A stretch of DNA of 64,000 nt from Candidatus Dojkabacteria bacterium (GCA_025999155.1 AP026679.1:602561-666560), one strand, 5' to 3'; positions 1,498-61,212 are shown, counted from the stretch's first letter. Notes: generated from the letters alone by a model not told the origin. Made by a program: numbers and translations.

Positions 1498-4090
1498 ATG
1501 TATAAAAACAAGTTTACTAAAAATGCTATTGCCGTCGTAGAGTCCGCCACTAAAGCATGTGTTCGGTTAGGTTCGAAAGTGATGACATGTGGAACATTTA
1601 TTTATCGGCATTTTAAGTGTAAAAGAGGGTGTTGGATCCAGAATATTAGCTCGTTTAGGACTCGATCCAGATGCTACTTTAGAAAGCATAGAGAATGAAC
1701 TGAAGGGTGAGCTCGTCATCACAAGACGTTAATTCAAAATTTGGATGAGGTAGTCTGATAGTCTTTGTATCGGATGATGTCAAATCAGGCATTCGAAAAG
1801 GCCTTTGACTATGCGATGAATGCGGGGCACACCTATATTGGGACTGAGCATCTATTGTTAGGAATTTTATCGATCAGCGATAATGCTTTTGTCAAGGAGC
1901 TTGATAAATTAAATATAAATTTCCGAAAAATTAAATCAGAAATTGATAGTTTTGTGCAGTATCCTGAGTTTACAAATACTGAAGTTTTGGATAGTTTGAC
2001 AGGACAGCCAAATGTTCAGTTACCGGATCTACCTAATAAAAATTCATCGCAAAATCGAGGTTTTCTCGAGACTTATGGGCGAAATCTTGTTAGAGAGGCA
2101 AGACAAGGTAAATTAGATCCAGTAATTGGTCGAGATAAAGAAATACTCCGAGTAATGCAAATTTTAGCTCGTCGTACGAAAAATAACCCGATTTTACTCG
2201 GTGATGCGGGAGTTGGTAAAACTGCTGTTGTCGAGGGTCTCGCTCAGCGTATTGCAAATAATGCAGTTTCTCCCGTTTTAGCCGGTTTTGAAATTTGGTC
2301 CGTCGATACAGCTTCAATTATTGCCGGATCTCAATTAAGGGGGGATGTAGAGTCTAAACTACTAGACTCTGATATCTGAGATTGAAAGCAGACAAAACGT
2401 GATTTTATTTATTGATGAAATTCATACCATATTAGGTGCTGGTTCAACTTCTAATAGTCCACTTGATATTGCAAATATTTTGAAACCTGCTTTAGCTAGA
2501 GGAGCATTACGTTGTATTGGTGCTACAACAGTTGATGAATATAAAAAGCATTTTGATGAAGATCCCGCTCTGCAAAGAAGATTTCAACCTGTAGATATAG
2601 AAGAGTTATCTGAGGAAGATACACTAACCGTTTTAAAGAACCTGCGTCCTATATATGAAGCCTTCCATAATGTCAAAATTACAGACGGTGCTTTACAGGC
2701 AGCAATAAAGTTATCAAAAAGGTATATAACTGATCGTTATCTGCCTGATAAAGCTATAGATATTATTGATGAGGCTTGTGCTAGAAATAAACTTGAGAGA
2801 GTACAGTTAAGTGATGAATTCAAACAAGAATTAGAACGTTTACGACAAATAATAAAAAACAAAAATGATGCTTTGAAAACAAAAGATTTTGATAAAGCTG
2901 CCTCTTTATTAGAGGAAGAGAATCAAATTACTCAGCGACTTAATGAAATAGAAAAACAATTAAAACGCAGTTGGAACTCTTCAAATAGGTTTATTAATGA
3001 GAGAGATATAAAAAATGTCATTACACTGTGGACAAAAATTCCAATTGAGACTTTAGATCAATCTACTGTCGAAAGTATAAAAAAATTGAAGGCAGATCTA
3101 TCACGTAATATCCTTGGTCAAGAGTATGCCACTAGTGTTGTCGTAAATGCTATTAAACGTACTAAAGCTGGGCTTGCCGGCTTTGATAGGCCTTTAGCAT
3201 CGTTTCTGTTTGTAGGTCCTACAGGAGTAGGAAAGACTGAGCTTGCAAAACAGTTGGCAAAATCACTTTTTGGCAGTAAAGATGCTTTGATTCAAGTTGA
3301 CATGAGTGAATTAATGGAATCGCATAGTGTATCAAAACTTATAGGTTCGCCTCCTGGCTATGTAGGTTTTGAGCAAGGAGGCCTATTGACCGATCGAGTT
3401 CGTCGTAGACCCTTTTCAGTTTTGCTATTCGATGAAATTGAGAAAGCAAGTCCGGAAGTGCTGAATATACTGCTACAGATTCTTGACGAAGGGCGTTTGA
3501 CGGACAGTAAGGGCAGAACAGTTAATTTTAAAAACACTATTGTCATTATGACTTCGAATATTGGCGCAGAATACGTTCATAAAGACATAGCTATAGGGTT
3601 ATATATTGGTGATAAAAAAAGAGATAATGAACTTGACCATGAGTTCGATCATGCTATGGCTGATATTCGTGAGAAAATCATCACGGAATTAAAAGACTAC
3701 CTGCAACCAGAATTTTTAAATCGTATAGATGACATCGTAGTATTTAGAGAATTGACACAAAAAGATGTAAAAAAAATAGCTAGACTACAAATACGAAATC
3801 TAGTTAATCGGTTGAGAAAAGAAAATAGGGTCATTGTTCATAACGCAGATTCTAAAGATATTATTGACTATGTTACTAGAGTAGGCTTTTCTGAGGAATA
3901 CGGGGCTCGCGAGATTAGGAGGGTGATTAAAAATACTATCGAAAACCTTGTCGCTGATAAACTCATTGATTTACATTGGGATAGCGATAAGAAGGGATGG
4001 TTACATCTAGAGGTCTCTCTAGGAAATAACAAGATATCTGTAAAAGAGATCAAAAGCATATCAAAAAATAATTCACGAGAAAGGCGTTAA
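1498..4090 (+). pseudogene. clpC: ClpC/ClpB-type AAA+ chaperone ATPase, at least three frame changes (about 1585, 1700-1765, 2365)
   Basis: Clp_N repeats (HVEHLFIGILSVKEG, GTEHLLLGILS); D1 Walker [19 protein letters not shown]; LISEIESRQNVILFIDEIHT only after a frame change; D2 Walker A GPTGVGKTELAK. Pieces are 1498-1585, about 1586-1733, 1765..2379 and 2399..4090. Confidence 0.75.
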
Positions 4091-12051: not shown

Positions 12052-12477
12052 ATGGAGACCATAATGCGATTAAATGCATATCTTGCTAAATTTTCGAAGT
12101 TTATATTTGCTATATTTTTGCTGTTTTTATTCATTATTAATTTTATAAGTGTTCCTGCTGTTGCTAAATGTCCGGAAAATGTTGTGCCGAATCCGCTAGA
12201 TCCTAACTGTCAATTACAGCAACCCATCACTCTGGGCATGATTTTGAATCGAATCACTCCATTTATCCCAATTGCGGCAACAATTGCTGCAGTGTTCATG
12301 TTGATTGCAGGGGCGTTCGTGATGTTGACGTCTCAAAATGAGGAGGGACGACGTAAAGCGATACAGTTCTGGATTAATGCCGCCATTGGTCTGGTGCTTT
12401 TATTCTCGATATGGCTCATTTTATTTCTCATCTCGATATTTACTGGTGTGGATTTATTAAGTGCTGTAGGACAATGA
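12052..12477 (+). CDS. pilin-like secreted protein 1 (VirB2/TrbC-like topology: signal peptide, Cys region, C-terminal TM-loop-TM)
   Basis: Likely start at 12064 (MRLNAYLAKFSKFIFAIFLLF signal). C-terminal hairpin IAATIAAVFMLIAGAFVMLT-SQNEEGRRKAIQ-FWINAAIGLVLLFSIWL. Stop overlaps the next start (ATGA at 12474-12477). Confidence 0.45.
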   Translation: METIMRLNAYLAKFSKFIFAIFLLFLFIINFISVPAVAKCPENVVPNPLDPNCQLQQPITLGMILNRITPFIPIAATIAAVFMLIAGAFVMLTSQNEEGRRKAIQFWINAAIGLVLLFSIWLILFLISIFTGVDLLSAVGQ

Positions 12478-13118
12478 GATTATTATTCATCAGAAAGTTC
12501 AAACGGTATTTATCTCTTATATTCGTTTTTATTTTATCTGTTTGTTTTTTCTATTTTATTTCGGTGCATGTTTTTCAATCAAATGTTTTCGTACTGTTTG
12601 CTCCATCGCCAGTCTCCGCAGAGTCACGTTTGGAATGTCATGATCCTGCTTCCGATGTGTATGATTCTGCAGAATGCGTAAGGGTTAGGTTAGGTCTACA
12701 AGAGATTAAGACAGAGTCATTTCTTATACCCAGAAATCCGAATGACATCATTACATTAGTTTTTATTGTTGTGTTGGCGATTGCTTTCATGGTTTCAGTA
12801 TTTAGGGCTATACTAATAAGTATGAAGTTCTCTGCAGCTGGGGATAATGTGGAAAAGAGACAGGAAGCTCTAAAACAACTCGTGGCATCCCTAATTGCGG
12901 TGGCTGTGTCTTTTTCTGCTTTAGGTATAACTACGTTTATTGTAGTAGATTTACTAGGAGGTACGGTTAATAATACATTAGTTGATTGTGATAACTTACC
13001 AGCGAATGCCTCACAGGAATTAAAAGATAAGTGCAATTTATATATAAATAATGTAATTCCTACGCAAGATAGTGATCCTGGAAGGAGGCCTGTGGGTCCC
13101 ACTATGAGGGCAGAATAG
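12474..13118 (+). CDS. pilin-like secreted protein 2 (paralog)
   Basis: Signal-like N-terminus MRLLFIRKFKRYLSLIFVFIL. Hairpin LVFIVVLAIAFMVSVFRAILISM-KFSAAGDNVEKRQEALKQ-LVASLIAVAVSF. Cys-containing C-terminal tail. Confidence 0.45.
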   Translation: MRLLFIRKFKRYLSLIFVFILSVCFFYFISVHVFQSNVFVLFAPSPVSAESRLECHDPASDVYDSAECVRVRLGLQEIKTESFLIPRNPNDIITLVFIVVLAIAFMVSVFRAILISMKFSAAGDNVEKRQEALKQLVASLIAVAVSFSALGITTFIVVDLLGGTVNNTLVDCDNLPANASQELKDKCNLYINNVIPTQDSDPGRRPVGPTMRAE

Positions 13119-13171
13119 TTTTTTGTGATGAGTAGTATGGCTGTATAGGTTGCAAGTATACAAAAGTTGTA

Positions 13172-13801
13172 ATGTATGCTACAATTGTTTTGTACATTTA
13201 TATTATATTTATATTGATAGCTATGAAAATAGAATATACTAAAAATATTTCAGCAAAGATGGCTGTTCTGATATTTTTCCTTGCTGTGTTTGCTGTGGTG
13301 TTTTCGCTTAGCACCGTGGCGTATGCTCAGAATGCCAACAATAGTTGTGGTTCTGATCCATTAAGTGCTGCTTTCGGGTGTAACAGCATTATTAATAGTG
13401 GTAGAGGTATAGATATAGGTAGTATAATCACAATATTCTTTAGAGGTCTTTTAATTGCTTCTGGGGTATGGACTGTATGGCATTTTGCTCTTGCTGGCTT
13501 TAAGATTGGTGGTGCAAAAGAAGACGCTACAAAGAGGCAGGAAGGAATAAAGGCTGCTGTAAATGCCGTTTTAGGTCTTGTTGTCGCGCTGTTATCTTTT
13601 GGGGCGACTTCGCTTATTGCAGGTGCCGTAGGAGGAAGTGCGGCTATTTCTGCTGTAGGAACGCCGTGTACTGCTGTAGATGACCAAACTCAATTATTAT
13701 TTACAGGATTTATGGAGCAGGAGGGAGGATCTGTGTATTGTGTTTTGAGGGATGCACAAGGTAACCAACTCCGTAGGGGCCCTGTTACTTCAAGGACATA
13801 A
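13172..13801 (+). CDS. pilin-like secreted protein 3 (paralog)
   Basis: Alternative start at 13223 (MKIEYTKNISAKMAVLIFFLAVFAVVFSLSTVAYA). Hairpin GVWTVWHFALAGF-KIGGAKEDATKRQEGIKA-AVNAVLGLVVALLSFGA. Confidence 0.45.
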   Translation: MYATIVLYIYIIFILIAMKIEYTKNISAKMAVLIFFLAVFAVVFSLSTVAYAQNANNSCGSDPLSAAFGCNSIINSGRGIDIGSIITIFFRGLLIASGVWTVWHFALAGFKIGGAKEDATKRQEGIKAAVNAVLGLVVALLSFGATSLIAGAVGGSAAISAVGTPCTAVDDQTQLLFTGFMEQEGGSVYCVLRDAQGNQLRRGPVTSRT

Positions 13802-13905: not shown

Positions 13906-13982
13906 GAGCCATTAGCTCAGTTGGTTAGAGCACGGTTCTTATAAAGCCGGGGTCGCTGGTTCAAGCCCAGCATGGCTCACCA
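13906..13982 (+). tRNA. tRNA-Ile with unusual anticodon TAT (UAU), CCA encoded
   Basis: GAGCCAT/ATGGCTC acceptor stem, D-arm GCTCAGTTGGTTAGAGC, anticodon stem CGGTT/AGCCG with loop CTTATAA, T-arm GCTGGTTCAAGCCCAGC. Confidence 0.8.
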
Positions 13983-52943: not shown

Positions 52944-53147
52944 TTACCTACTAAATAGTGCCGAACTCCCTAAAAATAGTGAAATGACGGTAATTAATAC
53001 TACAAGAATCCACAATATTTTGAATGCTAGACTTGCAGTGTATTTCTTTAATTTATTTATTAGCCTTTTTAGCCAAAGATATAATCGCTTTTTGTCTGTT
53101 TTATGTATATGTATTAGTAATGACTTCATATATTTAAATTGTCGCAA
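52944..53147 (-). CDS. small basic protein with C-terminal TM helix, hypothetical
   Basis: 67 aa; KKRLYLWLKRLINKLKK then ILWILVVLITVISLFL. Lies between pilin-like gene 4 and folD on the same strand. Confidence 0.3.
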   Translation of the reverse strand: MRQFKYMKSLLIHIHKTDKKRLYLWLKRLINKLKKYTASLAFKILWILVVLITVISLFLGSSALFSR

Positions 53148-53180: not shown

Positions 53181-53861
53181 TTATTCACCACATGGATCAT
53201 TTCTATCGAAAGTAAGGTTAAAAACTATTGTATTTTGACAGATAAAGTTATATTCCTTACGTTCCGTATTTGCAACTCCAAATCCAAGCACCCCAACTAA
53301 GAAAAATACTAAGACAGGATAAGCGAACAAGAAACCAAACGTGGAGACGATTGATGCGACAAGACCTTTTACTGCTGTTTGTCTTTTATCTGTATTGTCT
53401 CCTGCCGTCATTATTAATACAGCAGCCTTTCCAATACTAAAGGCTAATACTAGGCCAACAATAGCGTATAGAATCATAACTATACGTACGATGATTTTTT
53501 GTAGAGTAGATGCGGAAGCACATGAGATGACCACTGGATTAATAGGATTACCTGCACTATCGAGTTGGTAACCGTAAACAACGGAACCGTTTACTCCTAC
53601 AGATACTTCAGGTCTCAGTGTAGGATTACCATAGCCATCTAAAGTTATATAAATGTTTTTTATGACATCGGGGCAGCCAGAGTTGTATATACGTCTAGCT
53701 ATTTCTTCAGCTTGGGGTGAGCTTCGATCTACCGGAGGACCATAGCTGTAGGCATATGCCGTGGAAATTTTACTTACTGTTGGAGTAATACCAAGACAAG
53801 CTAATATATTGAATATTACGAGCAGTAAGTATTTTGAATATTTACTTATATGAATTCTCAT
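53181..53861 (-). CDS. pilin-like secreted protein 4 (paralog of the 12.0-13.8 kb trio)
   Basis: Signal peptide KYLLLVIFNILACLGITPTVSKISTAYA. Hairpin IVRIVMILYAIVGLVLAFSIG-KAAVLIMTAGDNTDKRQTAVKG-LVASIVSTFGFLFAY. The loop is near-identical to protein 2 (SAAGDNVEKRQEALKQLVAS). Confidence 0.45.
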   Translation of the reverse strand: MRIHISKYSKYLLLVIFNILACLGITPTVSKISTAYAYSYGPPVDRSSPQAEEIARRIYNSGCPDVIKNIYITLDGYGNPTLRPEVSVGVNGSVVYGYQLDSAGNPINPVVISCASASTLQKIIVRIVMILYAIVGLVLAFSIGKAAVLIMTAGDNTDKRQTAVKGLVASIVSTFGFLFAYPVLVFFLVGVLGFGVANTERKEYNFICQNTIVFNLTFDRNDPCGE

Positions 53862-54082: not shown

Positions 54083-55075
54083 ATGTGGTGTGCACATAAA
54101 AATCTCCTCTTTGTTTTTTCTTTTGTTTTTATGAGCGTACTTTTTGGTGGGGTTGATTTTTCGCGGGTTTATGCACAGTCATCATTCACCGTTAATCCAT
54201 GCAAACCAACTGGTACTCAATCCAATGATGTAGCCTGTCGCTGTAAAAAAAATCAGTGTAGATTATCCAGTATGAATGCAGATGTTCTATACGTCAATTC
54301 TTCCAATTTGAGCGCAGCTGATTTCGACCCGAATTTGATAGCTGATGGGACTGTCTCAGAAACGACAGCTCTTGTAGTATCTATGCCGGGTTACGTATGT
54401 ATTGACGGGGTAGAAAAGTTAGATGCAAATACTTTTAGACTCGGAGAAGAAGGTAATAATCAAGTTCTTTCTAACTTTACCATATCTAACGTGTATGAGA
54501 CTCTGGAAACAGGTTCTGCTTCTTTACGTGCCGATTTAGATCCTAAAAATTCAGTTTATGTGGATGTCTTTGCTGATGATGTCAATAGATCATCTATACC
54601 TAAAGGTTCATTTTGTAAGCTAGATCCACAGTCGGGTGTTGCATATTGGTATTATCCGGGTTATTTTTCTGTGATTGGATTGAATCCTTCTGGTAATTCT
54701 GAGATATTTGGGCCAGGAGGTTTATGTGAAAATGTACTGTTTTCCTCAAGAGATTTGTTTGGTCAGCAAATTACTGGAACTCAAACTTTTTTTGGTTGTT
54801 TGCCGAATTCGCCAAATGGGTTAGTTGCGTTTATAGTGAGGTTAATTACTGGGTTAGCAGTTATTATAACATTTTTGATTATCCTAATTAATTTGTTGCA
54901 AATTATCTCAAATTCAACAAATCCGGATATCGTAGCTCGGGCTCAAAAGAAGATGACGAGTGCAATTATTACCTTAGTTGTAATCTTGTTTACTATTACT
55001 ATATTGAATATAATCGGCATTCAGATTATTGGTCTGGATGCTGGGGGAATATTCGGTCTATTTACGGGAGGCTAA
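54083..55075 (+). CDS. pilin-like protein 5 with an extended (about 230 aa) Cys-containing N-terminal domain
   Basis: Signal peptide LLFVFSFVFMSVLFGGVDFSRVYA, eight Cys in the N-domain. C-terminal hairpin LVAFIVRLITGLAVIITFLIILINLL-QIISNSTNPDIVARAQKKMTSA-IITLVVILFTITIL. Confidence 0.4.
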   Translation: MWCAHKNLLFVFSFVFMSVLFGGVDFSRVYAQSSFTVNPCKPTGTQSNDVACRCKKNQCRLSSMNADVLYVNSSNLSAADFDPNLIADGTVSETTALVVSMPGYVCIDGVEKLDANTFRLGEEGNNQVLSNFTISNVYETLETGSASLRADLDPKNSVYVDVFADDVNRSSIPKGSFCKLDPQSGVAYWYYPGYFSVIGLNPSGNSEIFGPGGLCENVLFSSRDLFGQQITGTQTFFGCLPNSPNGLVAFIVRLITGLAVIITFLIILINLLQIISNSTNPDIVARAQKKMTSAIITLVVILFTITILNIIGIQIIGLDAGGIFGLFTGG

Positions 55076-55116: not shown

Positions 55117-57558
55117 ATGATTTTGTTTGATATGAGATATTTTGTTAAAATGGCTTCTAATAAAGATAAAAATATATTGAATAAGTTAAAGAGGATTTTT
55201 TGTGCAGCATTGCCAAGTAGAGGAGATTTAGTACTTTTCGGTAAATCTCTAGTGTTTTTGTTTGCAATACTTCTTGGATTGTCATTATTTTCACACCTTG
55301 CATCACCTGTAAAGGCTTTTAACTGGCCATGGGTGGAAGAAAAGGAAGTAGATTCTGCACCTGATGCTTTTTTTCAGTATATGAATTTCCAGGTGGCTGG
55401 TTGTTTCGGGTTGTCACAAGCACGTGACATAAAATATTCTGCTTTTACCGAGAATTTAGGTGTTGGTAGGAAAGTTGCTGAATATTGCCGGCAATTATCG
55501 GGTCCAAATGCTGCTTCTTCAGATCAGAAAAGTGGAATGTATGATACGGGTTTAGGGTGGATACAAATAGATTACGGAGCTACTGGTAGATTGATAAATG
55601 CTACTGCATCGGTATACGGTACGCAAGCTGTTCAGCCTGGTATGACGGTAGAATACTATGCCAAAAGGATTAGGGGGGAAGTGCTTGCTGCTGACAATCC
55701 TATGAGTGGAAGAAGCGTGTTGGCTCCTATTCTAGTACTTAATCAGAATTTGGTTAATCTTGCATACGGTTTGGTGGTTGTTGTGCTGCTTGTTTCATCT
55801 TTGAACATTTTGCTTAGCTCATTGACTGGACAGGAGGAAAAGGTAACTATAGTCCAATTAGTGATGAACGCAGGGGTAACTCTTTTGATTATTACTTTTT
55901 ATTATGAGATAGCAGCTATAATCTATGATCTAACTGTGAATTATGGCAATGCCCTGGTTGCTTCAATGATGGCCCCCTTTATCAACTCAAAAGTCATATT
56001 AGAAAGACTCTCACCTGGAGGAGATTTAGCTGTTATAAATTTACTTAATGTATACCAGTTTGTTGGTGTATCTGATGCTTTGCTCGTAGTACTACAAAGT
56101 ATAATGTCTGGTTTGTATCCTGCAATCGCACAGTCAACATCAGCGATAGGCGCTTCTTTGGGTGGTAGAGGAACTATTGATTCTCCATTCAACATCTTTG
56201 CAGGAATCTTTCAGTTTGCAGGGGGGTTAGGAGCTACAGGAGCTAGTATCTTCATTTCATCTTTTTTAGGTAATGCCGAGATATTCCAAGCTATTATTTC
56301 ATGGACCATTTTTGGCATAAATATAAAAATATTTATTAATCTATTAACTTCTTTTGTTACATTTACTATTTATGTTGGTTTTGGACCTTTGATTGCATTA
56401 GGAGGTATAGATGGTGGGTTTGCAAGGATATCCGAATCATTTAAAAAATTATTTGCATTGGGACTTGTTTTTCCGATGACCTTCTTATTTATTCTCTTAG
56501 GAGCTACGGCACTTAATCTGTCAATCAGAGAAAAGCCTTACGATGCCTCACAAGATTCTGTCAAAGCTATACCGTTGTGTAAGTATTCCCCTAGTGATCC
56601 AGCGAATACTGAGAATTCCATAATAGATAATGCTGGTTTGACTCAGTGGCTGCAAGATAGCATTGGTGGTAATCCAGATGTAGAGGATCCTGCTCGCTTT
56701 CGAAATAAAAATTTTGTTAATCAGAACATATTCGATGTAGTGCCAAAAGGGTATATAGATGGACTGAGAGATTGTAGACCCTCTTTATTTCCTGTTCCTT
56801 GGACCTTTATCCCTGCACCTTTTGGGACAGTTGGACAAAGACAGCTTCAGATACAGACAATAGATTCTTTAGTAAGAACATTCTTGGCTTTAGTGTTTAT
56901 AATACTGGCAGCCAGAGTTCCAAGTATTGTAAATGAAGCTTTGGGGGTTAGGGAAATGAATTCTTTGTCTAATATTACTTCAGCATTTGGCGCAGGAGCC
57001 AAAGGTGCCTTCGGTGCTGGAGGTACTATTTTCGCTACGGGTTTAGGTATGCTGTCTGCTGCGACTTCTGCTGCGACTAGAGTACCTATTCCTTTAGCTG
57101 GTCATTTAAATTCGGCGCGGGGGCTTGGACAAAATAGCTATCTTCAAGCTGTAGGTGGAGTCCTAGGTAGAGTTGTGCAACGTCTAAACCCAAGTTCTGT
57201 CCAGGATATAATAGCCAACTATTCAAAAAGGCAAAGTACTCCTGCTGAGATGGTTAATCAGTTCAATAGTGTTCGAAATTCTTTCTTAGGTGCTACCCCT
57301 GGGGCAGCACCTGCTGGAGTACCTACTCCTGGTACACCTGCCGCCGCTGCGGCAGGTGCTATGGATCCTGCTTATGCATCTCTGATTGCAGCTGTCCAGT
57401 TAGGTACAGCTTTCAAAGACTTGTCACAACAGACTACCGCTTTAGGGACTGTATTTAGTACATTTGGTGGTTCTATCGTTGCATTAACAACACAAATCCA
57501 AGCGTTTGCTAAAGAATTACGAGGTTTCATTGCTACAATCTCTATTGATGACGTATAA
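55117..57558 (+). CDS. large polytopic membrane protein, VirB6/TrbL-like by architecture
   Basis: 813 aa: signal/TM, about 180-aa extracytoplasmic domain, 6 or more TM helices, Gly/Ala/Pro-rich C-terminal region (GAGAKGAFGAGG, PGAAPAGVPTPGTPAAAAAGA). Confidence 0.35.
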   Translation: MILFDMRYFVKMASNKDKNILNKLKRIFCAALPSRGDLVLFGKSLVFLFAILLGLSLFSHLASPVKAFNWPWVEEKEVDSAPDAFFQYMNFQVAGCFGLSQARDIKYSAFTENLGVGRKVAEYCRQLSGPNAASSDQKSGMYDTGLGWIQIDYGATGRLINATASVYGTQAVQPGMTVEYYAKRIRGEVLAADNPMSGRSVLAPILVLNQNLVNLAYGLVVVVLLVSSLNILLSSLTGQEEKVTIVQLVMNAGVTLLIITFYYEIAAIIYDLTVNYGNALVASMMAPFINSKVILERLSPGGDLAVINLLNVYQFVGVSDALLVVLQSIMSGLYPAIAQSTSAIGASLGGRGTIDSPFNIFAGIFQFAGGLGATGASIFISSFLGNAEIFQAIISWTIFGINIKIFINLLTSFVTFTIYVGFGPLIALGGIDGGFARISESFKKLFALGLVFPMTFLFILLGATALNLSIREKPYDASQDSVKAIPLCKYSPSDPANTENSIIDNAGLTQWLQDSIGGNPDVEDPARFRNKNFVNQNIFDVVPKGYIDGLRDCRPSLFPVPWTFIPAPFGTVGQRQLQIQTIDSLVRTFLALVFIILAARVPSIVNEALGVREMNSLSNITSAFGAGAKGAFGAGGTIFATGLGMLSAATSAATRVPIPLAGHLNSARGLGQNSYLQAVGGVLGRVVQRLNPSSVQDIIANYSKRQSTPAEMVNQFNSVRNSFLGATPGAAPAGVPTPGTPAAAAAGAMDPAYASLIAAVQLGTAFKDLSQQTTALGTVFSTFGGSIVALTTQIQAFAKELRGFIATISIDDV

Positions 57559-57566
57559 GATCTTCT

Positions 57567-60227
57567 ATGAATCCTGCTACAGGTGGCGAACAAAATGGTA
57601 ACCCGATAGGACCTGCACAGATTCCTGGCGGAGTATCGGGTTCGAATGTCGGTAGTCAGCCAAAAGGATGGAGTCCCTGGGTTAATTCAGGAGGACTAGC
57701 GGCTGGATCTGGACAAAAGAACTCACCACAGGATAATCCCCCCCAACAGAATACACCACAAAGCAACTTTACATCAGCAGTGTTACAGAAGTTGCAAGAA
57801 CAAAATGAGCTACTTGCAAACTCCGGCTCACCAAATACTGAGCGACCAGAGACTCATCTATTGAACAATTCTCTACAAGGATCTGGCTATCCATTCGGGT
57901 CAGGATGGGGACCCAATGACTCTGCACCAAAAGGATTAGGGGTTGATTCGTCGCAACCAAGAACAAGAGGGCGTCTAAGTCCAGAGGTCCCATCTAATAC
58001 ATTCGGCACTTCCATACGACAAGTTCCATCAGTTACCGGCCTAGGATTGCAACCAGCAGCAAGCTTGCAACTTCCAACTGTTCGTTCGGGAAATCCTCCA
58101 CAAGCTGAAGCAAATACTCAAGGCGGAGATACTAAGGATCCATACAACGTCGCATATCTGCAAAGATTAAATCTTGATGGACTTCGCGGCGGAGGATCGG
58201 CTGAGTCAAGATTTAAACGTTTTGCTTCTGCAGCTAATCTTGGTGAAAAACCACCACCTATACTAAGATCATCACAGATCACCTTAGAACAAGGACAACA
58301 GCCATCTGATACACATACAACTAATTCAAATGTTTCGAGTGTGGGGGCGTTCGGTTCTGAATCAGTTGAAGCAACAGTTAATGCTGGGTCTCTTGCGGAT
58401 TCTATTGATACTAAATCTGAAGGAGATGTTGAGAAGCGTAGAAGTGCAGGATCAGCAAGAGGGAGACAGGTAGCAAGAAGAAAAAGATCAGCAGCAAGCA
58501 GAGTGGGAGTAGCAAATACGGTATATATGCCATCACTTAGTCCACACGGTGGTACAACATTGGGGGGGCAAGGAGTTGATACACCTACTGTAACGAGTTC
58601 AGAAATTCAGGGTACAGGTAGGCAACGTTCTTCTCTCCTTGTCCAGGGTGGAGAAGCAAGAGCTGGGTACGGGCCTATGTCAGACGTTTGGGAAGAGCCC
58701 ATATCTGAGGCTTGGAAACAGCCCGAGTCGGACGCTTGGCAACAGGGAGATCCTAAAACTGTTGCAGGACAGTCTCCTTCGGATGCTCCTTCCCGGGATG
58801 TAGATGTACAGCAACTTAAGACTCAAATCGATGGTGCGCAACAAATTGGACAACGGACACGATCAACAGCCTCCAATCTAGGTCAAGGTCTTGCCTCTAC
58901 AGGAAATAAAGCATCCCGAGCTCTTAAAACCGCAGCGACAGCTAGTAGGACAGCGCTTGTTGCAGGTAGGGCAGCGGTCTCCGCCATCGGAGCTGCACTA
59001 GCAACTCCTCAGGGTTGGTTCATTTTACTAGTGATTATTGTGTTGATACTTATAATAATAATTATTATAGTAGTGATCATACAGAGCTCTCAATCGAATT
59101 CAATTGCTGCAACTAATGAGGTAGCTCGCGAAACTGTACAAGCAACTATCAGTTCTGCTGCTTTTTCTGTTCTTGGCCCCAGTATCGGGCGTAATATACA
59201 GGTCCCCTTGGTTGCTAATTCTGATGGTGTAGAGAAAGACTCGAGTGATGCTGTCAGAAAAATATATGTTAGAGCTTTCCATCAATTAAGCGCTGATTCT
59301 AAAATTCAAGATTATAAGCTGACTTTACGAGTTAGTTTTCCTAACTCCTTAAATTTGTTAACACCGGAAGGGAAAGTTCTCGACAGAAACTCAAGTATCA
59401 TGACATTTAATGTTATAGGTGTGAGTAGTTTTGCTGTGATTGGCACAGATGCTGTGCGATGGGAATGTTCAAATGCTTGTAAAAGTACTGATATCGAAAT
59501 TATATTTACGAGTCCTATCGATCTTGCTAGCAGTGGCGGGCAAATATTACTGACTCTGGTTGCTTCAGATTTAAAGGATCAGCAAGGGGTTGTACTGCCA
59601 ACTACACAGATACGGGAGCTATGCTATGATGTTACTAATGTAGCAGGGTGTACGACAGCTACCCGATATGGTTCGGGTTCTGTAAGTGGAGGGGTATCAG
59701 GCCAACAGAATACCGGTTACACATCTGATGGTGTGTTACAGGTATGTCCTATGGATGTGAAAATCAATACTGGTGGCATAATATGTACTTCTGGAATGAA
59801 AGATAAAAGAGGCAATAAAGATCATAATGCAGTTGATATCGCTAGTGCTGATAATCAAGGGTTTTTGACGCAAGATGTAGTATCCCCAGTGACAGGTATA
59901 ATTGTGGCTATGTCTGATCCAAAATCAGAATTGCGTATAGGAGGAAGATGGTATCAGATTCAGGACGCTCAAAGGCCAGAATATACTTATGTAATTGCTC
60001 ATTTACAGCCTAATACAGAACCACAAGGTAGAGCATTTAATAAGGGAACAAGAATACAAGCAGGACAAATATTAGGAAAACCTTTTTATGCTACATCCGG
60101 ATATGACCGCCAATATTGGTCTGGACCTCATGTACACTTCCAGGTTCGACGAAATGGACAGGCCATCGATCCTGCTCCAGCCATAAGAGAAAAATGTGGT
60201 TGGCAGAATTTCAGATGTCCTAATTAA
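57567..60227 (+). CDS. bitopic cell-wall hydrolase: about 480-aa G/P/Q/S-rich disordered N-terminus, TM, extracytoplasmic domain ending in an M23 (LytM) peptidase
   Basis: TM GWFILLVIIVLILIIIIIIVVII at about aa 490. Canonical M23 order HNAVDIA ... VIAHL ... GQILG ... GPHVHFQV; paired Cys (CSNACKS, CYDV..GCTT, CPMD..ICTSG). Confidence 0.6.
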   Translation: MNPATGGEQNGNPIGPAQIPGGVSGSNVGSQPKGWSPWVNSGGLAAGSGQKNSPQDNPPQQNTPQSNFTSAVLQKLQEQNELLANSGSPNTERPETHLLNNSLQGSGYPFGSGWGPNDSAPKGLGVDSSQPRTRGRLSPEVPSNTFGTSIRQVPSVTGLGLQPAASLQLPTVRSGNPPQAEANTQGGDTKDPYNVAYLQRLNLDGLRGGGSAESRFKRFASAANLGEKPPPILRSSQITLEQGQQPSDTHTTNSNVSSVGAFGSESVEATVNAGSLADSIDTKSEGDVEKRRSAGSARGRQVARRKRSAASRVGVANTVYMPSLSPHGGTTLGGQGVDTPTVTSSEIQGTGRQRSSLLVQGGEARAGYGPMSDVWEEPISEAWKQPESDAWQQGDPKTVAGQSPSDAPSRDVDVQQLKTQIDGAQQIGQRTRSTASNLGQGLASTGNKASRALKTAATASRTALVAGRAAVSAIGAALATPQGWFILLVIIVLILIIIIIIVVIIQSSQSNSIAATNEVARETVQATISSAAFSVLGPSIGRNIQVPLVANSDGVEKDSSDAVRKIYVRAFHQLSADSKIQDYKLTLRVSFPNSLNLLTPEGKVLDRNSSIMTFNVIGVSSFAVIGTDAVRWECSNACKSTDIEIIFTSPIDLASSGGQILLTLVASDLKDQQGVVLPTTQIRELCYDVTNVAGCTTATRYGSGSVSGGVSGQQNTGYTSDGVLQVCPMDVKINTGGIICTSGMKDKRGNKDHNAVDIASADNQGFLTQDVVSPVTGIIVAMSDPKSELRIGGRWYQIQDAQRPEYTYVIAHLQPNTEPQGRAFNKGTRIQAGQILGKPFYATSGYDRQYWSGPHVHFQVRRNGQAIDPAPAIREKCGWQNFRCPN

Positions 60228-60237
60228 AAAATTCACT

Positions 60238-61212
60238 ATGCCAAGTACGCATGTTAAATTAGATAAAAAAATAATACTAGGTTTAATTGCAGTATTTATA
60301 CTATTTTTAGTGCTTTTACTACAGTCGATTTTTGTAAGGCCGTCATCAGATTCTAAACCTAAGTTTGATACCATTGAATTGCAATCTTTCTCTAATTACA
60401 AGTATGGCGATTACTTTACCGTAAATAGCGACATTGAATTCAAAACTACCAGCAATACTCTTGTATATAAAGTATCTGGTATTAATTCTGGGATAGAATC
60501 TGTCAAAAATGCAGCTTTGAAGTTAGGTCTTAGCAAGGAAATTCCTAACGTAAATACAAAAATCACAAAATGGGTAAAAGACGATGATAATGTACGTGCT
60601 CTGAATTCGGTCACTTTAGACAATATAAAAGGGACAGTTAATGTCTTTTATGAAAATGGTATCAATGAGAAGCCACTAGAGAGTGAAGATTATCTTAATT
60701 ATTTGAAGAGTTTTTTTGGTTTTCCGGATATGTATGAGATATATTTGATTAGTAAGGAAACTCAGCAAGATAGTGAGTTTTTAAATTATGGGGTCAAATG
60801 GCAGGAAAAAGATATCTATTTTGATCAGGCAGATAATATTTTTCTCAGCGTAACTATTGTCAATAAAAAAATCATCAGTGTATTTTTTCACTTGTTACCT
60901 ACCGAAATTACCGACTTTAAAAAGTTGAAGCCGATTGATAGGGTGACAAAAGATAATATTGCTTCTTATTATTATCAATTAAGTCTGAAACCGGAGGAAA
61001 TTCATAGCGCTTCAGAATATGGTAGCGAAACAATTGTTGTACCACCTGTGAAAGTTGGTTTAAGAGACCAAAAAGACGCATATATTTTATTTAACGATCC
61101 TACTTTGTCGTGGTTGCTTATACCTGTAATCGATTTTAACGGAGTATTTTTGGATGCAAATAACCAAAAGGGTAGCGCGAGTCTTTTGATAGTTAATCAA
61201 AATAATCGATAG
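60238..61212 (+). CDS. N-terminally membrane-anchored extracytoplasmic protein (VirB8/TcpC-like placement, unverified)
   Basis: TM IILGLIAVFILFLVLLLQSIF, then a 290-aa soluble domain. Directly follows the M23 hydrolase gene; ORF track start 60196 overlaps it, so the ATG at 60238 is more likely. Confidence 0.3.
   Translation: MPSTHVKLDKKIILGLIAVFILFLVLLLQSIFVRPSSDSKPKFDTIELQSFSNYKYGDYFTVNSDIEFKTTSNTLVYKVSGINSGIESVKNAALKLGLSKEIPNVNTKITKWVKDDDNVRALNSVTLDNIKGTVNVFYENGINEKPLESEDYLNYLKSFFGFPDMYEIYLISKETQQDSEFLNYGVKWQEKDIYFDQADNIFLSVTIVNKKIISVFFHLLPTEITDFKKLKPIDRVTKDNIASYYYQLSLKPEEIHSASEYGSETIVVPPVKVGLRDQKDAYILFNDPTLSWLLIPVIDFNGVFLDANNQKGSASLLIVNQNNR

Follow-up and report, generated by a model that had tools for sequence, protein, structure and literature searches.

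A membrane-tethered M23 peptidase with a long, predicted disordered cytoplasmic tail in a conserved chromosomal module of Dojkabacteria

The gene at 57567-60227 of the stretch of DNA analysed here (64,000 nucleotides, GCA_025999155.1, AP026679.1:602561-666560; hereafter the window), from Candidatus Dojkabacteria, an ultra-small bacterium of the candidate phyla radiation, begins with ATG and encodes a bitopic M23 protein of 886 amino acid residues, in which a disordered N-terminal tail, a membrane anchor with a PxGW motif, an external beta-sandwich and an M23 peptidase domain follow one another. In the reading preferred here, to which we give about an even chance of being correct, this membrane-tethered endopeptidase is the subunit that opens the wall in an envelope module conserved at a fixed place on Dojkabacteria chromosomes. 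On the outer side of the membrane, the M23 head is borne by a short helical stalk, followed by an Ig-like spacer and a flexible linker rich in G and S; its zinc and catalytic site is complete, and conserved, disulfide-forming cysteines stabilise it. According to the proposal, the anchor and the tail would dock the hydrolase to a machinery resembling a type IV secretion system (T4SS), by way of a VirB4 encoded elsewhere, of the adjacent polytopic protein, or of both, and docking would limit the cleavage of peptide cross-links to the places where a pilin or channel structure crosses the wall. A translationally coupled partner of YycI/YpeB-like fold would restrain or position the enzyme.

Catalytic domain, topology and tail of the M23 protein

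The catalytic domain belongs to family M23 and is unremarkable within it. Pfam Peptidase_M23 (PF01551) matched residues 752-869 (E 9e-9, 35.9 bits against a cut-off of 28.7), and profile searches of the PDB matched the domain to Csd3, VC0503, LytM and lysostaphin. The motifs H753-N-A-V-D757, H812 (IAHLQ) and H855-V-H857 align with the corresponding motifs of VC0503 and Csd3, and the residues H753, D757, H812, H855 and H857 are invariant across the nine family members (the window protein and its eight relatives). In the AlphaFold2 model, which was run with the nine-sequence family alignment, residues 728-886 form a compact domain of LytM fold (block-mean predicted local distance difference test, pLDDT, of 73-91, with one block at 60), and Foldseek matched it with a probability of 1.00 to ShyA, Csd1/2, EnpA, SpoIIQ, EnvC, DipM and LasA. 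Conserved Cys pairs of the domain are C727/C740 and C877/C884. Since the five invariant residues correspond to those that bind zinc or act as catalytic histidines in LytM-type enzymes, the protein is, as judged from its sequence, very probably active as a peptidoglycan endopeptidase. The canonical HxxxD...H...HxH set named in the original prediction was thus found intact, and its mapping by alignment revealed no degenerate residue.

Among 1.84 billion cluster representatives, scanned exhaustively with HMMER, just eight proteins with the same architecture were found. These relatives are 829-916 residues long, with identities of 19-49% over the full length and 22-75% over the external part, and each comprises a polar tail of 417-496 residues, one transmembrane (TM) helix and an external part of 369-438 residues. 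Word-indexed searches with the full-length sequence, the C-terminal 382 residues or the nine-sequence C-terminal alignment returned the protein itself or nothing, their candidate lists being swamped by poly-Ile and low-complexity words. A profile search of genome contigs with the family alignment gave an unrelated Bacteroidaceae M23 protein as its sole match, and a metagenome scan with the alignment of the neighbouring polytopic protein added only two further loci, identical in synteny.

Only one segment of the protein is hydrophobic (Kyte-Doolittle 4.29 at residues 486-504). Charged residues (K+R to D+E) number 5:0 over the 40 positions ahead of the TM helix and 2:2 over the 40 positions that follow. 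Cysteine is absent from the N-tails of the nine family members, except for a single residue in one member, and the external parts contain 8-12 Cys, always an even number, with seven at invariant positions; the window protein has none in its tail and eight in its external part, including these seven. The lack of any hydrophobic stretch ahead of residue 484, the charge bias and the Cys distribution support an N-in/C-out topology. The single TM segment and this orientation agree with the original prediction, as does an external part beyond the helix, the length of which is 380 residues rather than about 390. According to the AlphaFold2 model, residues 481-532 form the TM helix running on as a stalk, with pLDDT below 50 at residues 508-529. 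The stalk is followed by the beta-sandwich (block-mean pLDDT mostly 73-90, with dips of 50-65), whose Foldseek matches were Ig-like adhesin, pilin and chaperone folds (CupB6, PapD, AggA, Cna), and by the linker.

The first 480 residues are dominated by G, P, Q, S, A and T (57.9% in total), and the GC content of the first 1440 nt is 48.3% (local peaks of 0.51-0.53), compared with 40.0% for the remainder of the open reading frame (ORF) and 35.4% for the window, in line with the composition-driven GC elevation that had been proposed. The excess resides at codon positions 1 and 2 (0.60/0.57 in the tail-coding part), whereas the GC content of third codon positions (GC3) is 0.28 in the tail-coding part and 0.27 in the C-terminal part. 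Equal GC3 along the gene, with the excess at positions 1 and 2, indicates that the GC content follows from amino acid composition and that the frame is truly translated. The tail is unalignable among the relatives and its GC content is atypical, as would be expected if the GC-rich 5' 1.4 kb were untranslated and the true protein began near the TM helix; such an artefact is nevertheless scarcely credible, and a mis-called start codon very unlikely. The stop-free run of 480 codons has P = 7e-12 to 8e-17 at the given base composition (of the order of 1e-11 to 1e-16), the remaining five frames of the tail-coding stretch contain 7-37 stops, and GC3 does not differ from that of the remaining part of the gene. 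Moreover, all nine proteins keep a tail of this length range with collinear motifs, four of the nine start with MNP, Pro3 of the window protein is an invariant alignment column, and only 8 nt separate the end of the upstream gene from the ATG. An origin of the tail from internal DNA repeats was rejected: no tandem repeat was found, and the sole repeat, an AT repeat of 24 nt, lies within the part that encodes the TM helix. Promoter and terminator scans gave counts near the shuffled expectation and were uninformative.

The pLDDT was below 50 for residues 1-418 and 420-471, with values of 24-35 and no confident structure over residues 1-410. The only structure predicted in the tail consists of two tiny helices and a pre-TM helix at residues 412-437, the latter at low pLDDT (block means of 36-43). 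The proposed lack of secondary structure therefore holds nearly throughout the tail and is qualified by these short helices and by conserved collinear motifs across the relatives. The basic motif was found at a relative position of 0.44-0.64 in nine of nine tails (z = 7.9 against shuffled tails), the AYDxVQQ-type motif to which the pre-TM helix corresponds gave z = 10.7, and two other collinear motifs, F-[KED]-D-P-T and a Gly/Ser patch, gave z values of 6.7 and 6.6. Between the closest relatives and the window protein, tail identity is 25% (shuffled controls, 21-24%) compared with 73-75% for the external part. The tail was thus shown to diverge rapidly yet to retain its length and its collinear short motifs, and it is not junk. 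It represents a clean natural case of a long cytoplasmic disordered region, conserved in length and unconstrained in sequence, that is fused to an extracellular enzyme.

A modular anchor and a conserved chromosomal module

The weaker matches of the exhaustive search (P0012-P0017 and P0021) all aligned to residues 361-542 of the window protein, that is, to the pre-TM segment and the TM helix. In an alignment of 16 proteins, an A/G/R-rich segment ("GRAAxxAxRAA") is followed by (L/F)(L/A)(A/S)-x-P-x-G-W and then by the TM helix; in every case, 126-497 residues of polar, largely Cys-free tail come before this anchor. The grouping, termed PxGW-anchored envelope proteins, was defined in this analysis and is not a curated family. 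A hidden Markov model (HMM) of the anchor, built from only seven proteins outside the M23 family described above, was run over the window and eleven loci, in all 1482 ORF segments, many of them encoding TM proteins. It matched the window protein (46.7 bits, E 1.8e-13) and the M23-family proteins of loci L004, L008 and L010 (9e-14 to 4e-8); beyond the training sequences it matched M23-family proteins only, and no other TM protein.

The external parts behind this anchor differ: M23 with SLT in P0012, M23 in P0021, Peptidase_C39_2 in P0015, a LAS/M15-like motif recognised by eye only in P0017, and 139 and 53 residues without recognisable enzymatic domain in P0013 and P0014, respectively. The P0014 gene follows virB4 at a distance of 6 bp in a canonical T4SS locus of Patescibacteria, whose order is four T4SS_pilin genes, PrgI, TraC-like, VirB4 (P-loop_TraG, DUF87, AAA_10), P0014, dnaN and dnaA; the contexts of the other anchor proteins are short contigs. 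The anchor was thus shown to be a modular device common to varied wall-hydrolase heads and to a head-less VirB4-adjacent protein, and as a marker it would provide a handle on dispersed components overlooked by virB4-centred profile searches. P0015 lies near a GH73 glucosaminidase, with one gene in between, which brings to mind Ca. Southlakia epibionticum, where the genes lying shortly after virB4 include essential ones for peptidase and lysozyme homologues (PMC12102498). Comparison by hhalign of the neighbours of the window's M23 gene with the large membrane protein of the P0014 locus and with the P0015 neighbours was negative. As a separate observation, a partial ORF two genes past P0012 (L015:4341-4703, +) has a weak match to Replic_Relax PF13814 (E 0.005, below cut-off), which hints that P0012 may lie on a mobile element.

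The genomic setting of the M23 gene was compared among eight independent contigs with family members and one more with the polytopic gene. The neighbourhood is essentially constant: ftsE, ftsX, an M23 gene in the EnvC position, mutL, folD, the module, mutS and hrcA. The module itself consists of a divergent arm on the minus strand, encoding a TM protein of 60-80 residues and a protein of ~220 residues, and a plus-strand arm encoding proteins of ~330 residues, ~800 residues (polytopic), the M23 protein and a bitopic protein of ~325 residues. Because the same chromosomal neighbourhood was found in all loci, the module is vertically inherited and is no mobile or conjugative element. In the window, 41, 8 and 10 nt separate the successive plus-strand genes, the last gap lying between the M23 stop codon and the start of the bitopic partner gene, whose position is conserved in all loci; in several relatives these two genes overlap. 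The coordinates of the features are listed in Table 1.

Table 1. Features of the M23 protein, its module and the EnvC-position protein (window coordinates unless a locus is named)
Feature	Position	Strand	Evidence
Bitopic protein, 886 aa: disordered N-tail, PxGW membrane anchor, beta-sandwich, M23 domain	57567..60227	+	
Low-complexity, Cys-free cytoplasmic tail, aa 1-410, predicted disordered, fast-evolving	57567..58796	+	pLDDT, composition, identity
Basic motif VARRKRSAASRVGV, family consensus K/R-R-R-K/R-x-L/V-R	58470..58511	+	all nine tails
Pre-TM helix, aa 412-437, counterpart of the relatives' conserved AYDxVQQ-type motif	58800..58877	+	AlphaFold2; motif z
A/G/R-rich juxtamembrane segment, aa 438-483, with most of the ATPQGW (PxGW) motif	58878..59015	+	16-protein alignment, anchor HMM
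ATPQGW (PxGW) motif, aa 479-484	59001-59018	+	
TM helix, aa 484-506, N-in/C-out	59016..59084	+	hydropathy, flanking charges, Cys distribution
Ig-like extracytoplasmic beta-sandwich, aa 533-688	59163..59630	+	AlphaFold2, Foldseek
Flexible G/S-rich linker, aa 689-727, GSGSVSGGVSGQQ	59631..59747	+	pLDDT <50 at aa 692-721
LytM-type M23 metallopeptidase domain, aa 728-886	59748..60224	+	Pfam, PDB profiles, Foldseek, invariant columns
Bitopic partner, 324 aa: N-terminal TM helix and two external domains	60238..61212	+	AlphaFold2, Foldseek
Polytopic membrane protein, 813 aa, ~7 hydrophobic segments	55117..57558	+	no detectable family
Pilin-like protein B, 330 aa: signal peptide, ~220-aa Cys-rich external domain, C-terminal two-helix hairpin	54083..55075	+	
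Pilin-like protein A, 226 aa: signal peptide, Cys-containing external domain, C-terminal two-helix hairpin	53181..53861	-	
Small single-TM protein, 61 aa, first gene of the divergent arm	52944..53129	-	counterparts in relatives
EnvC-position protein, 455 aa	48559-49926	+	
Relatives of the 455-aa protein	L004:968-2335, L005:1414-2805, L006:1335-2666, L008:1031-2395, L009:785-2155, L014:3936-5318		

The bitopic partner was modelled by AlphaFold2 with a pLDDT of 84 and a predicted template modelling score (pTM) of 0.77. Foldseek matched the model to 5coz, an uncharacterised Eubacterium protein (2e-7), to YycI (E 7e-6 to 4e-5, with 2o3o at 7e-6) and to the C-terminal domain of YpeB (5boi, E 4e-4), so a YycI/YycH/YpeB-like fold is predicted. 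The PDB profile search with this protein was empty, and Pfam gave no YycH, YycI or PepSY match. YycI is an extracytoplasmic regulator of the cell-wall kinase WalK, and YpeB is the partner of the spore cortex hydrolase SleB. The modelled fold suggests that the hydrolase has an extracytoplasmic regulator or chaperone of its own; a VirB8-like identity of the downstream protein was rejected on the basis of this fold.

Of all the genes in the module, that for the polytopic protein is the best conserved (40-81% identity across relatives), and the protein has many invariant polar residues in or beside its hydrophobic segments. Its Pfam, NCBIfam and PDB profile searches gave no match. Size, topology and position suggest, and do not prove, a channel subunit of the VirB6/ConG/Orf15 type. 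The C-terminal ~200 residues are Ala/Gly/Pro-rich and predicted to form a coiled-coil; weak matches of this low-complexity region to TraB (VirB10, F-plasmid) in PDB and NCBIfam (E 0.03-0.27) were judged compositional.

Both pilin-like proteins gave sub-threshold matches to T4SS_pilin PF18895 (cut-off 26.6 bits), and their layout of signal peptide and two-helix hairpin suits that family. Protein A scored 22.3 bits (E 1.4e-4), with similar sub-threshold matches in two relatives, and showed a weak hhalign match to a genuine pilin of the window. Protein B, the product of the first gene of the plus-strand operon, has invariant Cys residues in its family alignment and scored 20.7 bits (E 4.3e-4); it also matched the NCBIfam Mbov_0395 pilin-like conjugal transfer protein (E 0.007). 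Pilin-like families of Mycoplasma integrative and conjugative elements were likewise matched weakly by the flanking pilin-like proteins. The 61-residue TM protein is encoded between folD and the pilin-like gene by an ORF that falls below the usual length cut-offs. Counterparts of 59-80 residues occupy the same position in L005, L006, L008, L009 and L010, and no Pfam match was obtained; the protein might be a VirB3-like small subunit.

A second pilin array lies elsewhere in the window (12052-13801, +), where overlapping ORFs of 141 and 235 residues match T4SS_pilin PF18895 above cut-off (34.1 and 29.5 bits). The array is followed by a multi-TM ORF of 209 residues and located between pnp and a tRNA-Ile gene, with no VirB4 nearby.

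In the 455-residue protein that follows ftsE-ftsX in the EnvC position, the M23 motifs occur in permuted order: the half with 'GxxIGFxGRxG...HLHF' (residues ~283-345) precedes that with 'HxxxD ... YAxKxG ... Y(Y/W)H' (residues ~386-447), and Pfam covers only profile positions 2-54 of 96, at the extreme C-terminus. The same order was observed in all seven relatives checked, and the protein may contain a circularly permuted M23 domain with all catalytic residues kept.

The type IV secretion reading and its rivals

The original prediction had likened the protein to T4SS-associated hydrolases of monoderm conjugation systems. PrgK (pCF10), TraG (pIP501), CwlT (ICEBs1) and Orf14 (Tn916) likewise have an N-terminal anchor and a hydrolase outside. 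PrgK, which also has a LytM/M23-type domain, is 871 residues long, near the 886 of the M23 protein, and the gene order polytopic - hydrolase - ~310-residue bitopic is also annotated in the Tn916-like element on pCF10. No PrgK, TraG, CwlT or Orf14 protein is known to have a disordered cytoplasmic tail of ~470 residues. Unlike the hydrolases of the MPF-FATA class, the M23 protein has no SLT, lysozyme, CHAP or NlpC-P60 domain and no adjacent VirB4, VirB3 or coupling protein, and it is encoded in a chromosomal housekeeping setting; its partner is YycI-like and not VirB8/TcpC-like as in monoderm conjugation systems. The YycI/YpeB-like fold weakens a one-to-one mapping onto Orf15-Orf14-Orf13 of Tn916. 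Domain scans of the protein gave M23 only and no homology to VirB1 profiles, hhalign against PrgK gave a probability of 0.5%, and hhalign of the protein and its neighbours against PrgH/PrgK/PrgL of pCF10 and Tn916-like Orf15/Orf13 gave no similarity. Given that no T4SS cluster and no SLT, CHAP or VirB1 homology was found, the protein was not filed as a member of the VirB1/PrgK family; it may still work like a VirB1/PrgK-type hydrolase. The proposed resemblance is therefore upheld in part and only indirectly, since the anchor recurs on other wall hydrolases and on a protein encoded next to virB4, and since the neighbours are sub-threshold pilin-like proteins in a Tn916-like gene order; the lack of VirB4, VirD4 and relaxase nearby, the lack of PrgK similarity, the YycI/YpeB-like partner and the chromosomal setting of the module stand against it.

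The T4SS of Patescibacteria has been described as phylum-wide, chromosomal, relaxase-less and MPF-FATA-related, with VirB2-like pilin arrays (Quinonero-Coronel et al. 2025, PMC12102498). According to that paper, some patescibacterial VirB1 homologues bear extra M23 or LysM domains, two Dojkabacteria genomes in Table S1 are both scored VirB4-positive, and the cultivated Patescibacteria are obligate epibionts (PMC12102498). M23-bearing hydrolases and peptidases tied to the patescibacterial T4SS are thus known already from that source, and the P0014 locus, with pilins, PrgI, TraC-like and VirB4 beside dnaN/dnaA, has the arrangement reported there. The Dojkabacteria module differs from such loci in having no virB4 inside 10 kb and in an M23 protein with M23 alone. 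In the available text of PMC12102498, no mention of a disordered tail or of the PxGW anchor was found, and the literature searched yielded no long disordered tail, PxGW anchor with interchangeable heads, YycI-like partner or module apart from virB4. The Patescibacteria account for much of bacterial diversity and apparently live attached to other microbes; their T4SS-like genes proved essential in the one system tested (PMC12102498).

Several results weigh against a wall-opening subunit of a T4SS-like machinery. No VirB4, VirD4, VirB3 (PrgI) or relaxase was found in the window (57 kb upstream and 4 kb downstream of the gene), and no VirB4, VirD4, PrgI or relaxase within 10 kb in seven related loci (L004-L010). 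T4SS_pilin scores of 17-22 bits, below the cut-off, were obtained for only 5 of the 12 flanking proteins scanned, with weak hhalign matches. The polytopic protein has no similarity to VirB6, TrbL, PrgH or Orf15 detectable by profiles or hhalign, and no VirB8-, TcpC- or PrgL-like structure occurs among the top 50 Foldseek matches of the partner. The link to virB4 comes from one well-resolved context, that of P0014, whose protein has no hydrolase head, and the anchor HMM misses the divergent M23-family members in L005, L006 and L009. Coupling of the tail to a cytoplasmic partner, as had been suggested for this protein, is a step that we purely infer.

The main rival is a regulated housekeeping autolysin, that is, an M23 enzyme with a YycI/YpeB-like partner that would serve the cell's own growth or division and be unrelated to secretion; its tail would take signals from division or elongation proteins, and the pilin-like and polytopic neighbours would be merely syntenic. 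We consider this explanation rather doubtful. The fold of the partner and the tight translational coupling fit it, as do the strictly chromosomal, vertical inheritance of the module among housekeeping genes, 8 kb from ftsE-ftsX and the EnvC-position M23 gene, and the absence of a T4SS ATPase nearby. The bitopic M23 proteins MepM and ShyA are also growth enzymes, and ShyA is among the top Foldseek matches. However, an autolysin leaves unexplained the occurrence of the anchor directly after virB4 and on a protein with M23 and SLT, as well as the constant co-transcription with two VirB2-like proteins and a polytopic protein of ~800 residues, and an M23 protein associated with FtsEX is already present in the genome to serve division. 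The systems to which an autolysin would be compared resemble the M23 protein in some respects and differ in others. MepM/YebA, ShyA, Csd3 and VC0503 are its best catalytic-domain matches and have a beta-rich domain before M23 and a complete catalytic set, but their cytoplasmic part is short or absent, they have no PxGW anchor and their genomic partners are others. In SleB-YpeB and WalK-YycH-YycI, the partner has an N-terminal TM helix and an external YycI/YpeB-like fold, and as with SleB-YpeB the partner gene of the module lies directly beside that of a wall hydrolase; unlike in these systems, there is no sequence similarity and no WalK-like kinase nearby, and the enzyme is an M23 protein and not a lytic transglycosylase.

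A host-directed lytic weapon, whose surface M23 head would digest host peptidoglycan at the epibiotic contact as a route to nutrients while the partner acts as an inhibitor for self-protection, appears quite unlikely. It would suit the obligate epibiotic life of cultivated Patescibacteria (PMC12102498), the long reach provided by ~220 residues between membrane and catalytic domain, the intact, disulfide-stabilised catalytic head, and the interchangeable heads on a common anchor, as in polymorphic effector systems. Against this, a TM-anchored enzyme must traverse its own wall and any outer layers of the host, and no toxin/immunity signature, secretion signal or cleavage site was identified; moreover, such a role is compatible with that of a wall-opening subunit and does not exclude it. 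SpoIIQ of the SpoIIQ-SpoIIIAH channel in Bacillus sporulation, which was among both the sequence and the fold matches, is bitopic as well, carries its LytM domain externally and takes part in a cell-to-cell conduit. SpoIIQ acts as a scaffold, and the catalytic site of B. subtilis SpoIIQ is incomplete. A non-catalytic scaffold of this type was rejected for the M23 protein, since its catalytic site is complete and invariant, its partner is YycI-like and no ring-building motif of the SpoIIIAH type was found.

The preferred reading, a wall-opening subunit, can be extended to a wider scheme, which we regard as unlikely. The tail and the A/G/R-rich/PxGW anchor would then constitute a hitherto unrecognised, phylum-wide T4SS docking adaptor whose swappable heads are M23, M23+SLT, C39-like, LAS-like or lacking altogether. 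Its M23 version in Dojkabacteria, together with a YycI/YpeB-like inhibitor, a highly diverged VirB6-like channel and head-bearing VirB2-like pilins, would form a dedicated wall-breaching unit for epibiotic attachment or feeding, encoded apart from virB4.

Other features of the window

The tRNA-Ile gene next to the second pilin array was located by ARAGORN at 13906-13982 (+) and carries the anticodon TAT (UAU), an uncommon bacterial means of reading AUA. Two genes near the start of the window are split. A class II aminoacyl-tRNA synthetase (38-1190, -) is represented by ORFs 38-667 and 591-1190, each covering half of PF00152, and ClpB (1765-4090, +) by ORFs 1765-2379 (Clp_N) and 2399-4090 (AAA_lid_9, AAA_2, ClpB_D2-small). 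These interruptions are frameshifts, either real or assembly errors of the metagenome-assembled genome.

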